Assembly (NCBI RefSeq): GCF_030384885.1
Contig: NZ_CP128613.1
Source: Escherichia coli
GTDB lineage: Bacteria > Pseudomonadota > Gammaproteobacteria > Enterobacterales > Enterobacteriaceae
DNA length: 64,000 nt
Reading direction: 5' to 3' (one strand)
Shown here: positions 22,601 to 28,600 of the stretch, piece by piece
How the letters are laid out: each line of letters begins with the position of its first letter
Position numbering within the stretch: the stretch's first letter is position 1
Program-made: the position numbers

Positions 22601-25600
22601 GTGACACTGACTTTTATAAAGTGCATGATAAGTTTGTATACTGTATAAATTTTCAAAAAAAGAGCACGGGTGATATTTTTTTTATAAACACAGGTGTTCA
22701 TCCTATATTCGAAGGTTTTTGCAATGAACTACCAACAAAAGAAATAGATTGCTACATTCGTAATCGTGTGTGTGATGGACTAAGTATATCTTTGCTGAAT
22801 TCTTTTGAAGGTGATGAATTTGTTATCAATGAGATAAAGGATAAAGCGTTTTGTTTTTTTGAATACTTTGATTCATTGAATAAAATATTCGATAGTATTC
22901 GTGTTGTCGATATTGAAGAGAGAAATATTTGCGATGAGCTAAGTAATGTAAGTAGCGTAAGATTAGCTTTGATGTGTATGAACTACCAATATGAGAAAAA
23001 AAATTTGGGACTTGCTTCAGATTTTGCGAACTATGGTCTTGCTATATCTAGAGGCCCGGTACCGAAAAAAGCATTTAAGGATATGATAAAAAAAATAGAG
23101 TGATATCTAATCCGCTGTAATGCCAATTGTCTGTGTACAGAGAAGGTTAACGGCCTGGATGAGACAATCGTCTACACATGGGACGCTGCAGGCCGCCTGG
23201 CAGAAATCATCGCCCCGGAAGGGAAAACGCAGTACGCGTATGACAAATCCGGCAGGCTGACGGGTATCTTCAGCCCGGACGGCATATCACAGCGCACCGG
23301 CTACGACGAACGCGGGCGGGTGAATGTCGCCACGCAGGGCAGACGGGCCATTGAATACCACTACCCAGGGAAAGATCACGTAACGCTGCTTTTTTGTACT
23401 AAACAATTCGAATTTTATGTTTAAAAATTGAGATATTCCTCATTACCTGAAGCTGTTTTTTATTGCTTATACATGATCAAATACTCCTTACATAATTAAG
23501 GAGAACAAAATGGAACTTAAAAAATTGATGGAACATATTTCTATTATCCCCGATTACAGACAAGCCTGGAAAGTGGAACATAAATTATCGGACATTCTAC
23601 TGTTGACTATTTGCGCCGTTATTTCGGGTGCAGAAGTTTGGGAAGATATAGAGGATTTTGGGGAAACACATCCCGATTTTTTGAAGCAATATGGTGATTT
23701 TGAAAATGGTATTCCTGTTCACGATACCATTGCCAGAGTTGTATCCTGTATCAGTCCTGCAAAATTTCACGAGTGCTTTATTAACTGGATGCGTGACTGC
23801 CATTCTTCAGATGATAAAGACGTCATCGCAATTGATGGAAAAACACTCCGGCATTCTTATGACAAGAGTCGCCGCAAGGGAGCGATTCATGTCATTAGTG
23901 CGTTCTCAACAATGCACAGTCTGGTCATCGGACAGATCAGGACGGATGAGAAATCCAATGAAATTACAGCTATCCCAGAACTTCTTAACATGCTGGATAT
24001 TAAAGGAAAAATCATCACAACTGATGCGATGGGTTGCCAGAAAGATATTGCAGAGAAGATACAAAAACAGGGAGGTGATTATTTATTCGCTGTAAAAGGA
24101 AACCAGGGGCAGCTAAATAAAGCCTTTGAGGAAAAATTTCCGCTGAAAGAATTAAATAATCCAGAGCATGACAGTTACGCAATGAGTGAAAAGAGTCACG
24201 GCAGAGAAGAAATCCGTCTTCATATTGTTTGCGATGTCCCTGATGAACTTATTGATTTCACGTTTGAATGGAAAGGTCTGAAGAAATTATGCGTGGCAGT
24301 CTCTTTTCGGTCAATAATAGCAGAACAAAAGAAAGAGCCAGAAATGACGGTCAGATATTATATCAGTTCTGCTGATTTAACCGCAGAGAAGTTCGCCACA
24401 GCAATCCGAAACCACTGGCACGTGGAGAATAAGCTGCACTGGCGTCTGGACGTGGTAATGAATGAAGACGACTGCAAAATAAGAAGAGGAAATGCAGCAG
24501 AATTATTTTCAGGGATACGGCACATCGCTATTAATATTTTGACGAATGATAAGGTATTCAAGGCAGGGTTAAGACGTAAGATGCGAAAAGCAGCCATGGA
24601 CAGAAACTATCTGGCGTCAGTCCTTGCTGGGAGCGGGCTTTAGTGAGTAGGCCACCGGAACCTCCCCGACAGCCTCTCGCAGAACCGTACGTGAAACTCT
24701 CGCTTCATACGGCTCCCGTCAGGCAAACGCGCTTCCTGGTCCTGCTTTCCAGTGGGCAAACAACTCCGGCTTCTCTTTTGACAGCCTTTCCATTAGCTGA
24801 CACGCCTTCGTCTTTCTATACCGCAGGGTTTTATATTTCTTTCTCGCCCACGCAATCAGCGTCAGATTAATATATCTGCATACTTTCTTCATCGCTGATT
24901 TGTGGTATCTCGCGTAATAATTCAGCCACCCCGATATTATCGGATTCAGCCACTTCGCAATATCTTCGAGACTCATCTCCACCCTGCGTCTGATCCACAG
25001 TTTCCTGAGTTTTCCAATCATGCCTTTCTGCGCACGGTTACTCGCCGCCGGGCTGAAACTCGTAAAGAGGTTCCCCCGCCGGTGGTTACGTGCTCTTCGC
25101 GCTCTGAACGTATACCCCAGAAAATCAAACTGCACTGTTTCATGGTTCGCCTGTCGTTCGCTGTCTTTGCAGTAAACTATTTTCGTTTTCTCCGGATGTA
25201 ATTCCAGTCCACATTCCTGAAAACGTTTTGCCAGCTTATTCAGTAATTCCTCTGCCTGTTGTTTACTGCCACAATGAATTAATCCATCATCTGCATAACG
25301 GCACCAGGGAATTTCCGGATAATGTAACGTCAGCCATTTATCAAACACATAGTGCAGAAATAAATTCGCCAGTACCGGGCTGATGACTCCACCCTGTGGC
25401 GTACCTTTATTTCTTTCCTTCAGTGTTCCATCCGGCATCTGCACCGGCGCTGTCAGCCAGCGGCGAATAGACAGTCTTACCCATTTATCCGCACAATGTT
25501 TATCTACTGCCCTGAGTAATAAATCGTGGGGGATATTATCGAATAACCCTTTAATATCAAACTCAAGACACCAGTCGTATTGCCAGCAACGTTTTCTGGT

Positions 25601-28600
25601 GACTGCTATTGCATCCAGCGCTGATTTTCCATGCCGGTATCCGTATGAATCATTCAGGAAATAACGCTCCACTAATGGTTCAAACGTTACCAGCACCGTC
25701 ATCTGCGCTATTCGATCGCTTACTGTCGGTATTCCTAAAAGTCTTTTGCTGCCATCCTTCTTCGGAATTTCCACCGCACGCACTGGCGGCGGCATCCAGC
25801 TTCCCGACGATAACCTGTTCCAGATTTTGTACAGATTTCCTTTCAGATCCCGCTCAAAATCTTTCAGCGTCTGGTTATCCACTCCGGCAGCTCCGGCATT
25901 CGCCTTTATCCGCCGGTACGCTTCCACCACATGCAATTTACTGACCTGAAACGGTTTTGTCTGTTCACACACAGCCTCCTCCTGCCTACAGTTGGGCTGT
26001 GATGCAGACTGCCCGACGCTGTCCCTTCGCTCCACGTTCATTACAAACGCTTCCTCACTACTACGAACAGCTCTGCCCCGGTTTCGCACATCGATACTCT
26101 CATACTCATAATTTCGGTTATTTGTATTTCTCTCTTGACATTGCGACGACCGGTTCCCGTAGTTCCTGCAAAGAGCCCGATACAGCGTCATGCCTGCTAT
26201 ACACCGGACATCATTCACGCAGCATTCGGAATTCACCCGTAAATTAATCCCGGCGGTATCACGAAACCTCCGGTTTTGATGTCACTTAGGACTAACGACG
26301 TTTCAACACAGGTTCGGGTTTACTCATCTCACTGTATCTCACATAGGATCAGATCTCGTCTGATCGTTCCCCCTGCGCTCACTACCATGGCTCTTTACCA
26401 CAGCAGCCGGGGTTGTTTGGGACCGACTTCCGACAGCAGATCCCGGTGGGCCTGCCACCATCTCTTCACAAGCTTATGCTTATTACATGCAAAACGTCCC
26501 GTTTTGCATCTTTGTGCCTACGGCACACCGTAATCTTTCCCTGTGTCATTAGTGCGTTCTCAACAATGCACAGTCTGGTTATCGGACAGATCAAGACGGA
26601 TGAGAAATCCAATGAAATTACAGCTATCCCTGAACTTCTTAACATGCTGGATATTAAAGGAAAAATCATCACAACTGATGCGATGGGTTGCCAGAAAGAT
26701 ATTGCAGAGAAGATACAAAAACAGGGCGGTGATTATTTATTCGCTGTAAAAGGAAATCAGGGGCGGCTTAATAAAGCCTTTGAGGAAAAATTTCCACTGA
26801 AAGAATTAAATAATCCAGAGCATGACAGTTACGCCATTAGTGAAAAGAGTCACGGCAGAGAAGAAATCCGTCTTCATATTGTTTGCGATGTCCCTGATGA
26901 ACTTATTGATTTCACGTTTGAATGGAAAGGTCTGAAGAAATTATGCGTGGCAGTCTCCTTTCGGTCAATAATAGCAGAACAAAAGAAAGAGCCAGAAATG
27001 ACGGTCAGATATTATATCAGTTCTGCTGATTTAACCGCAGAGAAGTTCGCCACAGCAATCCGAAACCACTGGCACGTGGAGAATAAGCTGCACTGGCGTC
27101 TGGACGTGGTAATGAATGAAGACGACTGCAAAATAAGAAGAGGAAATGCAGCAGAATTATTTTCAGGGATACGGCACATCGCTATTAATATTTTGACGAA
27201 TGATAAGGTATTCAAGGCAGGGTTAAGACGTAAGATGCGAAAAGCAGCCATGGACAGAAAGTATCTGGCGTCAGTCCTTGCGGGGAGCGGGCTTTCGTAA
27301 TCTTTCCCTGCCCTGCTCACCTCCTCCAGGCACTTCCACAACATGATGACCTGATCGGTTGCCGCCTATCCTCCTCACTATGACCTTCACCTCCGCGCTT
27401 TTGCCTACATCCTGCACAATCGGCAACTTTTATAACCAGTGTAAAAATAACGTGCCGCAATAATCCTACCTATTAATGATAAAAAGCTGTCACAATTCAT
27501 AAAAAACTTTAATATACGCCACCCTAAACATAACCAGCGTTAATGTAAGGTTTTTGTGTGGACTGGCTTCTTGATGTTTTTGCAACCTGGCTATATGGCT
27601 TAAAAGTAATCGCGATAACGTTAGCGGTCATCATGTTCATCAGCGGGCTGGACGATTTTTTTATTGATGTCGTCTACTGGGTACGCCGCATTAAACGCAA
27701 GTTGAGTGTTTATCGCCGCTACCCGCGAATGAGTTACCGCGAACTGTATAAACCAGATGAAAAACCGTTAGCGATTATGGTTCCGGCGTGGAATGAAACG
27801 GGCGTCATCGGCAATATGGCCGAGCTGGCGGCGACCACGCTCGACTATGAAAACTATCATATCTTTGTTGGCACCTACCCCAACGACCCCGATACTCAGC
27901 GTGATGTTGACGAAGTGTGCGCTCGCTTCCCAAACGTGCATAAGGTAGTCTGCGCGCGTCCTGGCCCCACCAGCAAAGCCGACTGCCTGAACAACGTGCT
28001 GGACGCCATCACCCAGTTTGAGCGTAGCGCCAATTTCGCTTTTGCTGGTTTTATTCTGCATGACGCCGAAGACGTAATTTCACCGATGGAATTGCGTCTG
28101 TTCAACTATCTGGTCGAGCGTAAAGATCTGATTCAGATCCCGGTATACCCATTCGAACGCGAATGGACGCACTTCACCAGCATGACTTACATTGATGAGT
28201 TTTCAGAACTGCATGGCAAAGATGTTCCGGTGCGTGAAGCCCTCGCCGGACAAGTGCCCAGCGCAGGCGTCGGTACTTGTTTCAGCCGCCGCGCCGTGAC
28301 CGCACTGTTAGCTGACGGTGACGGTATTGCTTTCGACGTGCAGAGTCTTACTGAAGATTACGACATTGGTTTCCGCCTGAAAGAAAAAGGTATGACGGAA
28401 ATTTTTGTCCGTTTTCCGGTGGTGGACGAAGCCAAAGAACGCGAGCAGCGTAAATTTTTACAGCACGCGCGGACGTCAAACATGATCTGCGTGCGCGAAT
28501 ATTTCCCCGATACCTTTTCGACGGCGGTTCGACAAAAGTCTCGCTGGATCATCGGCATTGTTTTCCAGGGCTTTAAAACCCATAAATGGACCTCCAGCCT

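Follow-up and report, generated by a model that had tools for sequence, protein, structure and literature searches.

In the 64,000-nt stretch of the Escherichia coli 2013C-4282 genome analysed here (the window), RefSeq has ltrA annotated inside an insertion sequence, an H-rpt located next to nfrB where an Rhs element ends, with Rhs genes adjoining. The locus raises the questions of what the inserted element is, where exactly it begins and ends, and how it came to lie antisense at the very end of a transposase gene. A sequence-only reading had proposed a minus-strand group II intron of about 1.9 kb with a GUGYG 5' end, a domain V-like hairpin, and an RT/maturase with a YADD motif and without an HNH domain, all of which we recovered as the following features.

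24642-26528, minus strand: complete group II intron of E.c.I9 type (probably bacterial class D), 1887 nt; Rfam matches at both ends, exact excision
26524-26528, minus strand: 5' terminal GUGUG, fitting GUGYG, by direct sequence reading
26342-26459, minus strand: domain I segment, RF01999 group-II-D1D4-2, 93.1 bits, E 1e-17, gathering threshold 36, full model length
26288-26291, minus strand: candidate EBS2, 5'-UCCU-3' (intron nt 238-241), facing AGGG at exon -14 to -11; tentative, 4 bp
26258-26263, minus strand: EBS1, 5'-CGUGAU-3' (intron nt 266-271), in a hairpin terminal loop of the alifold consensus
24719-26041, minus strand: ORF of the intron-encoded protein in domain IV, 440 aa; ATG at 26041, stop codon at 24719-24721
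24642-24717, minus strand: domains V-VI, RF00029, 62.8 bits, gathering threshold 40, full model 1-77
24682-24715, minus strand: domain V, 34 nt, with AGC triad, 2-nt bulge (AC) and GAGA tetraloop, from the RF00029 alignment and fold
24645-24679, minus strand: domain VI, from the RF00029 alignment and fold

Identity of the intron and its protein

Read on the minus strand, the element starts at 26528 with GTGTGCCGTAGG and ends at 24642 with GGCCTACTCACT. The covariance-model search, with matches called at the Rfam gathering threshold, returned both the domain I segment and domains V-VI, and the RF00029 match terminates precisely at 24642, the intron 3' end. In the fold, domain VI has one bulged A, the putative branch point, at 24648, seven nucleotides from the 3' end. 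When domain I was folded thermodynamically and with alifold, the EBS1 hairpin was the only reliable part, and no usable model of the full domain resulted. The 440-aa protein matches Pfam RVT_1 (7e-42) and GIIM (4e-13), that is, reverse transcriptase and maturase/X, with YADD in the reverse transcriptase domain; the same Pfam search found no HNH domain, and only about 35 residues lie beyond the maturase domain. The RNA is IIB-like, and the protein is a reverse transcriptase with maturase, without endonuclease. It is annotated as ltrA (WP_001100277.1), and this exact protein is recorded in 229 blocks of a large collection; it has 23 substitutions relative to the E.c.I9 reference protein.

E.c.I9, a name of the Zimmerly group II intron database, is represented by the copy in ATCC 8739 (NC_010468, 2411599-2413485), which is given as 100% identical to the database reference (PMC3522654). 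The window intron is identical to that copy at 1817 of 1887 positions (96.3%), without indels and at equal length; this is above the level at which the name is given in PMC3522654, a nucleotide identity of 90% or more with the database reference. The two share the GUGUG and CUCACU ends, an H-rpt/ISAs1 host beside Rhs elements, and insertion 15 nt from the IS end. E.c.I9 and E.c.I2 are both class D in the supplementary table of PMC3522654 (Leclercq & Cordaux 2012); going by this literature on E.c.I9, the window intron would belong to bacterial class D (IIB3), and a protein without DNA-binding/endonuclease domains, a trait of that class, is what we found. The intron, its class and its H-rpt preference are already catalogued, as had been anticipated when group II introns in E. 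coli H-rpt were said to have been described. A literature search pairing group II intron with H-rpt gave no match; the wording in PMC3522654 is 'Rsh IS' and 'Rhs region'. An E.c.I2 (IntB)-like intron (strain MS1050) shares about 71% of its nucleotides with the window intron; its architecture and the family of its host IS are the same, and it likewise encodes an endonuclease-less RT/maturase. Unlike the window intron, it is in sense and sits within the transposase ORF, at about position 1087 of H-rpt.

The interrupted H-rpt and the exact boundaries

The window holds two adjoining copies of the host element.

23366-24641, plus strand: H-rpt (ISAs1-family IS) copy 1, positions 1-1276, from inverted repeats, NF033564 and RefSeq annotation
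23510-24643, plus strand: ISAs1 transposase ORF, 377 aa, with the final two stop-codon bases supplied by the intron
26529-26543, plus strand: outer 15 nt of the copy 1 right inverted repeat (CGTAATCTTTCCCTG), from direct and inverted repeats
26544-27310, plus strand: H-rpt copy 2, positions 525-1291 only (5'-truncated), from the repeat match to copy 1

Excision of 24642-26528 joins 23366-24641 to 26529-26543 and restores an uninterrupted H-rpt of 1291 bp, with the target neither duplicated nor deleted. Positions 525-1291 of the restored element align to 26544-27310 without gaps at 98.3% identity (13 of 767 positions differ). Because of this gapless alignment, the insertion point at 24641/24642, which had been deduced earlier from the filled and empty sites, and both intron boundaries are exact to the nucleotide. 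Copy 2 starts directly at the exact end of copy 1, and its right repeat carries the empty site (27289-27310), GGGCTTT followed by CGTAATCTTTCCCTG, with the junction at 27295/27296. This empty target was described correctly by the sequence-only reading, but it belongs to the second, truncated H-rpt, which has 13 differences from copy 1 in 767 positions; it is a paralogous site and not the pre-insertion allele. The orthologous intron-less allele was sought through the junction of the copy 1 end with copy 2 position 525, which is contiguous in no complete genome; the best matches are two separate pieces inside ordinary H-rpts. The junction of the left flank with the IS is unique to 2013C-4282.

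The transposase (NF033564, 414 bits) shows how the insertion affects the host gene. Insertion had been placed exactly at the transposase stop codon; the antisense orientation holds, while the intron in fact splits the last sense codon (TCG, Ser) between its first and second bases. The empty copy ends in GSGLS and a stop codon, whereas the filled copy ends in GSGL followed by TAG, formed from the remaining T and the AG of the intron read antisense, so that a single serine is lost.

The intron ends in CU and not in AY, as had been noticed before; the accompanying suspicion that the boundary was off by 1-2 nt was mistaken, since the filled/empty comparison fixes this position and CUCACU is the 3' end of every E.c.I9 copy examined, at left- and right-repeat sites alike. 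The related E.c.I2-like intron ends in CUCACC. The GUGUG 5' terminus is the same in the other full-length copies examined, except in one diverged copy (L007). The 3' AY of group II introns is a frequent consensus and is not obligatory. Furthermore, the 3' splice site of RmInt1, of class D, is reported to have a cytidine run, with cytidine also as the last base (PMC4238363). By this analogy, the non-AY end is consistent with class D and is no argument against group II membership. The 3'-end anomaly is settled in this way, with an exact boundary and a non-AY pyrimidine end of the kind also reported for class D RmInt1.

Location in the right inverted repeat and its probable origin

E.c.I9 usually occupies H-rpt in the sense orientation at position 15/16 of the left terminal inverted repeat, CAGGGAAAGATCACG followed by TAACG, as in the ATCC 8739 reference. 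The filled left-repeat junction was found in 84 of 5426 complete genomes, and the same placement is seen at loci L004-L007, L009, L010, L014-L018 and L020. In contrast, the window intron lies antisense in the right terminal inverted repeat of the ISAs1 element, at its position 15/16, CAGGGAAAGATTACG followed by AAAGC, a filled junction present in one of the 5426 complete genomes. The right-repeat junction also occurs in independent assemblies (L021 and L023), and the draft assemblies show that it is common to a lineage; it could be used as a marker to recognise the relatives of 2013C-4282. The canonical left-end site of copy 1 (23366-23380, junction before 23381; CAGGGAAAGATCACG followed by TAACGCTG) is unoccupied.

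Read on the minus strand, 26529-26543 is the intron 5' exon with IBS1 and IBS2. The proposed EBS/IBS comparison gave a clear result for EBS1: CGUGAU forms five Watson-Crick pairs and one G.U at -4 with the exon AUUACG of the filled site, and pairs perfectly with AUCACG of the left repeat. The E.c.I2-like intron has a compensatory change, CGUCCA at the homologous position facing UGGACG of its own exon. At the position of the candidate EBS2 this intron has CCAG, facing CUGG at its own exon -14 to -11. The EBS1 loop reads UUUCGUGAUA in the window intron and CAUGAUGAUA in the ATCC 8739 reference.

Other pairings were considered and rejected. For an EBS2 at intron 217-224 (CCUGUGUU with GACACAGG), half of the exon segment is sequence beyond the IS that differs from locus to locus. 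A further EBS2 position, at which the E.c.I2-like intron carries GACGC facing GCGUC, reads GAAAC in E.c.I9 and does not pair. For nucleotide 283 as EBS3, the two alleles vary contrary to what the +1 base would require, and the intron comparison revealed no consistent EBS3 position.

We consider it very probable that the right terminal inverted repeat of the H-rpt, at the Rhs element beside nfrB, was the retrohoming target of a mobile E.c.I9-type class D intron. The intron would recognise the IS end by its outer 15 bases, chiefly through pairing of EBS1 with IBS1 and, probably, of a short EBS2 with AGGG. Since the IS ends are inverted repeats, the right end carries the same 15-mer, one base off, on the other strand; that base produces the G.U wobble at -4, and the 3' exon is also different. 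The intron is antisense because it is seated at the mirror-image position in the right repeat, and the same geometry explains its proximity to the stop codon. Use of this near-cognate right end instead of the left end, which lies upstream of the transposase gene, would have put the intron in antisense, 5 nt short of where the transposase ORF ends, at the cost of one residue. As published for RmInt1, reverse splicing into DNA at the replication fork, primed by the nascent lagging strand, may have been the route. The locus is a clean natural case in which an endonuclease-less intron occupies the mirror image of its target, in the opposite inverted repeat of its IS.

RmInt1 (Sinorhizobium meliloti, class D/IIB3) is also IS-resident, in ISRm2011-2. 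Passages in PMC4238363, PMC4075523 and PMC8914252 describe its pyrimidine-rich non-AY 3' end and its insertion mainly into the lagging-strand template. Its host, IS and target are different. Its target recognition uses a 7-nt IBS1 and an IBS2 at -9 to -13, along with contacts of the protein at T-15 and G+4. No Sinorhizobium match id came up when plasmids were searched by tblastn.

Mobility, replication strand and alternative explanations

Copies of 1887 nt that are 100% identical to the window intron occur in other assemblies at three other loci (metJ, yafV and RhsE), which argues for recent activity of this exact sequence. The 2013C-4282 genome has four intron places, the maximum in the collection, and its left-repeat copy at RhsE/ydcC is 99.8% identical to the window intron.

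GC skew of the plus strand is negative in 13 of 15 windows along the stretch; the minus strand, which is the intron sense strand, therefore runs with the fork. This orientation agrees with the lagging-strand bias of RmInt1, which, according to a passage in PMC8914252, inserts mainly into the lagging-strand template. The canonical left-end site of copy 1, which is empty, is on the disfavoured strand, and the filled near-cognate and empty canonical sites, 1.3 kb apart on opposite strands of one element, are the kind of pair that a strand-bias model predicts. Fork direction may perhaps decide which inverted repeat E.c.I9 uses, the left if the IS runs with the fork and the right if it is head-on, but the argument has a single head-on H-rpt (n=1), and a further near-cognate right-repeat site (27296-27310), likewise on the favoured strand, is unoccupied, which counts against it. 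If it were true, the intron would always be on the lagging-strand template, 15 nt inside the IS end and splitting the repeat bound by the transposase, and E.c.I9 could travel with the IS while also holding the IS in check.

As for present activity, the window copy might be an inert passenger, intact but untranscribed from the minus strand, neither splicing nor moving and carried in one lineage. Upstream on the minus strand there is a single promoter-like site, no better than expected by chance and with a terminator-like hairpin (26667-26685) after it, the host gene is on the opposite strand and thus provides no host transcript with the intron in sense, and the right-repeat arrangement is lineage-restricted. 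However, the ORF and catalytic domains are intact and the three identical copies elsewhere argue for very recent activity of this sequence, so that we regard inertness as rather unlikely. It would in any case be compatible with an origin in the right repeat.

Another explanation of the arrangement is a DNA rearrangement that started from an ordinary left-repeat insertion, either by recombination between intron copies or by inversion of the H-rpt core between the near-identical 15-nt ends. In formal terms, the sequence in the window is that of an H-rpt with the intron in its left repeat and with core 16-1276 inverted, and the four intron places in the genome could recombine. Moreover, three draft or metagenome assemblies (L011, L013 and L019) have the 5' junction and flank of the window with a left-repeat-type 3' junction, which reflects either recombination between intron copies in the lineage or chimeric assembly. 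However, these are short-read assemblies across a 1.9-kb multicopy repeat, and the combination is absent from all complete genomes. Recombination between intron copies swaps only the flanks, and thus the junction of the intron 3' end with AAAGCCCGC must pre-exist somewhere; the inner parts of the two repeats have no homology to set a crossover exactly at 15/16. In addition, the 15-nt 5' exon has T at -4, as in the right repeat of copy 2, and not the C of the left repeats. We therefore hold a rearrangement to be highly improbable and prefer insertion into the right repeat. Finally, a retron or defence-associated RT can be dismissed: secondary NCBIfam matches to Drt3a, Drt2 and retron St85 RT are weak, far under their cutoffs and normal RT-fold cross-matches, whereas TIGR04416 scores 427 bits against a cutoff of 300, the protein has the GIIM maturase domain, the ORF lies between ribozyme domain I on one side and domains V and VI on the other, and the element is precisely excisable.

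Beyond careful annotation the significance of the locus is small, ltrA being already in RefSeq. In O157:H7 and BL21 genomes, 5' fragments of 193 nt and 159 nt match E.c.I9-tr1 and -tr2, which are listed as class D in PMC3522654.

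The intron, its identity and its boundaries

The element is a real group II intron with a reverse transcriptase/maturase, as had been read from the sequence alone. Rfam covariance models, searched at the gathering threshold, matched a domain I segment and domains V-VI, and the RF00029 alignment terminates on the same last base (24642) as the 3' end that had been proposed.

Features of the window intron
26342-26459, minus strand, domain I segment (Rfam RF01999, 93.1 bits)
24642-24717, minus strand, domains V-VI (Rfam RF00029, 62.8 bits, full-length alignment)
24682-24715, minus strand, domain V, whose fold is the classical hairpin of 34 nt (GAGA loop, 2-nt bulge)
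ATG at 26041, minus strand, intron ORF of 440 aa with RVT_1 and GIIM and no other domain

The domain V-like hairpin noted earlier is thus a classical one; domain VI folds with a single bulged A seven nt before the intron end, and the domain V/VI fold has a z-score of -3.4 against shuffles. The 440-aa protein carries the YADD motif and lacks an HNH endonuclease domain, as first described, and scores 427 bits against TIGR04416 (cutoff 300). Retron and defence reverse transcriptase models score far under their own cutoffs, and such an identity for the protein was rejected.

Leclercq and Cordaux (2012, PMC3522654) list E.c.I2 and E.c.I9 as introns aimed at two different positions of Rhs-associated IS, and tabulate E.c.I9 as class D. 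The window intron shares 96.3% identity with the E.c.I9 copy of ATCC 8739 (both 1887 nt, no indels) and, judged by sequence, is E.c.I9, because this exceeds the 90% identity of the naming rule given there. BLAST found 5' fragments of 193 nt and 159 nt in O157:H7 and BL21 genomes, exactly the lengths tabulated in that paper. Strain MS1050 has a relative of 71% identity, placed within the transposase ORF in sense orientation, which fits E.c.I2. The finding is real and was correctly interpreted, and its kind was already known, as the sequence-only reading held: E.c.I9 and E.c.I2 are both catalogued in PMC3522654, and the intron is annotated in the source genome. Only one detail is new, namely that the intron used the mirror-image site in the right inverted repeat.

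The minus strand across the intron reads ...CAGGGAAAGATTACG/GTGTGCCGTAGG......GGCCTACTCACT/AAAGCCCGCTCC... (slashes mark the intron junctions), and the flanking exon sequences in the sense of the intron are CAGGGAAAGAUUACG (5') and AAAGCCCG (3'). Without 24642-26528, the segments 23366-24641 and 26529-26543 form a 1291-bp element, H-rpt copy 1, which over positions 525-1291 gives a gap-free alignment with copy 2 at 26544-27310 (754 of 767 nt identical). The insertion point 24641/24642 therefore stands, with exact boundaries and no target duplication, and a 1-nt ambiguity is absent because the exon-side base at each junction is unlike the intron's terminal base there. The suspected error of 1-2 nt at the 3' boundary was unfounded: all E.c.I9 copies terminate CUCACU, at either kind of site, and the E.c.I2-like relative terminates CUCACC. 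The 3' splice site of RmInt1 has a cytidine run and a terminal cytidine, and further introns of class D have like runs (Chillon et al. 2014, PMC4238363). Thus the non-AY end is in line with reports for this class rather than a boundary error. The insertion had been placed exactly at the transposase stop codon; it is at the end of the ORF, but it splits the last sense codon, since the filled copy ends GSGL-stop and the empty copy GSGLS-stop.

Target recognition and use of the right repeat

Every other full-length copy fetched lies 15 nt inside the left repeat of H-rpt, transposase-sense and upstream of the transposase gene, the canonical filled site being CAGGGAAAGATCACG/intron/TAACGCTGC... Since the ends of H-rpt are inverted repeats, the opposite strand of the right end reads CAGGGAAAGATTACG/AAAGCCCGC. 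The copy in the window occupies the homologous 15/16 position of the right repeat (...GATTACG/AAAGCCCG, as against ...GATCACG/TAACGCTG in the left repeat), which explains both its antisense orientation and its place at the extreme end of the ORF.

The hexamer CGUGAU at window 26263-26258 (intron nt 266-271) lies in a hairpin loop. Its pairing with the canonical AUCACG is perfect, and that with the right-repeat AUUACG includes one G.U wobble. Its assignment as EBS1 is supported by a full compensatory change: in the E.c.I2-like intron the corresponding bases are CGUCCA, facing that intron's own exon UGGACG. The best EBS2 candidate, UCCU (nt 238-241) with AGGG at -14 to -11, is thin at four pairs, the E.c.I2-like relative showing a matching CCAG/CUGG at that position; for EBS3 no position could be placed in the window intron. 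Copies of E.c.I9 vary in the EBS1 loop (window 26258-26267, intron nt 262-271; compared with loci L009, L006 and L010). The window intron and the majority of copies have UUUCGUGAUA, the ATCC 8739 type has CAUGAUGAUA, and the second copy of the genome that carries the window has UUUCAUGAUA. Several copies carry a mismatch between this loop and their own 5' exon.

In addition to the wobble at -4, the right-repeat site has differences from the canonical sequence at +1, +4, +5 and +7; it is near-cognate, consistent with its rarity. When junction probes were run against 5426 complete E. coli genomes, the left-repeat filled junction was found in 84, the right-repeat filled 3' junction in one, and the right-repeat 5' junction with its flank in one. 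The 377-aa transposase with an intron-supplied stop occurs in 269 blocks of a large assembly collection, and two independent assemblies (GCA_000190995.1 and GCA_017979575.1) share the right-repeat junction; the arrangement is therefore a lineage marker and not a one-off artefact. The left repeat of copy 1 (plus strand) is a perfect canonical E.c.I9 site, CAGGGAAAGATCACG/TAACGCTG; it is unoccupied, and the near-cognate site that is filled lies just 1.3 kb away.

Three short-read draft or metagenome loci (L011, L013, L019) join the window 5' flank to a left-repeat-type 3' flank (TAACGCTG...). Their 60-nt 5' flank is identical to that of the window (copy 2 interior plus CAGGGAAAGATTACG), and the outer context of L013 is yafV/ivy, not nfrB. 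Misassembly seems the likelier explanation, since intron and H-rpt are both multicopy and the combination was not found in complete genomes; real recombination between intron or H-rpt copies is less likely.

Probable retrohoming and the replication fork

The ORF and catalytic domains of the window intron are intact, 100%-identical 1887-nt copies lie at the metJ, yafV and RhsE loci in other assemblies, and the source genome has four intron places, the maximum in the collection, one being a 99.8%-identical left-repeat copy at RhsE/ydcC. Together these sequence data argue for recent retrohoming of E.c.I9.

The intron protein is without an endonuclease domain, and for such introns the RmInt1 model involves reverse splicing into the lagging-strand template at the replication fork (PMC8914252). 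Along the plus strand of the stretch, GC skew is below zero in 13 of 15 windows. Given this skew and the K-12 map, on which nfrB is a minus-strand gene of the right replichore, the intron sense (minus) strand runs with the fork. Reasoning from the same map makes the copies in left repeats at ydcC, yafV, gnd and metJ co-directional with replication too. Copy 1 of H-rpt is head-on. Of its two sites, the perfect one in the left repeat (23366-23380) lies on the disfavoured strand and is empty, and the near-cognate one in the right repeat lies on the favoured strand and is filled. The right-repeat site of copy 2, equally placed, is empty. The fork-direction model fits this arrangement, as a single case.

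Genomic setting, IS structure and intron fragments

In strain 2013C-4282 (NZ_CP027579.1), 2064724-2066610 matches the window intron at 100%. The RefSeq order there, in window orientation, is Rhs repeat protein, DUF4304 protein, ISAs1 transposase (377 aa), ltrA (opposite strand), a second shorter ISAs1 CDS, nfrB, nfrA, ybcH, envY and ompT. Copy 2 of H-rpt, positions 525-1291 only, has 13 differences from copy 1, and its first base directly abuts the last base of copy 1. Because this junction falls at the exact IS end, the sequence points to transposition of copy 1 into copy 2; one of the two left portions of H-rpt may then have been lost by recombination between them. An intron-less version of this arrangement was not found among complete genomes.

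The first 193 or 159 nt of the intron are present at 100% identity in nearly half of complete E. coli genomes (L002 4001-4193 in O157:H7 FRIK2533, L003 4001-4159 in BL21, and about 2,400 further genomes). At both named loci a 16-nt IS-end remnant precedes the fragment, and directly after it comes a complete H-rpt left repeat, starting from its outermost base. Possibly, an H-rpt inserted into the intron, and the remainder was then lost by recombination between the two H-rpt copies in direct orientation; the listing of fragments in PMC3522654 does not discuss the abutting IS end. Intron nt 155-175 (window 26354-26374, minus strand), CAGGGGGAACGATCAGACG, are similar, read in the same sense, to the terminal repeat CAGGGAAAGATCACG of H-rpt, and they adjoin the two breakpoints, 159 and 193, at which the fragments meet H-rpt ends. 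This likeness may be a coincidence or mark a preferred IS target.

Elsewhere in the window, a full-length tRNA-Arg(TCT) lies at 34635-34711 (minus strand) between envY and ompT (ARAGORN; Rfam 72 bits), and is absent from the RefSeq feature table returned for the 2013C-4282 stretch. Three tandem Rfam matches to sok antitoxin RNA at 5219-6379 (minus strand), of 82-87 bits each and about 500 nt apart, indicate a triplicated hok/sok-type locus.
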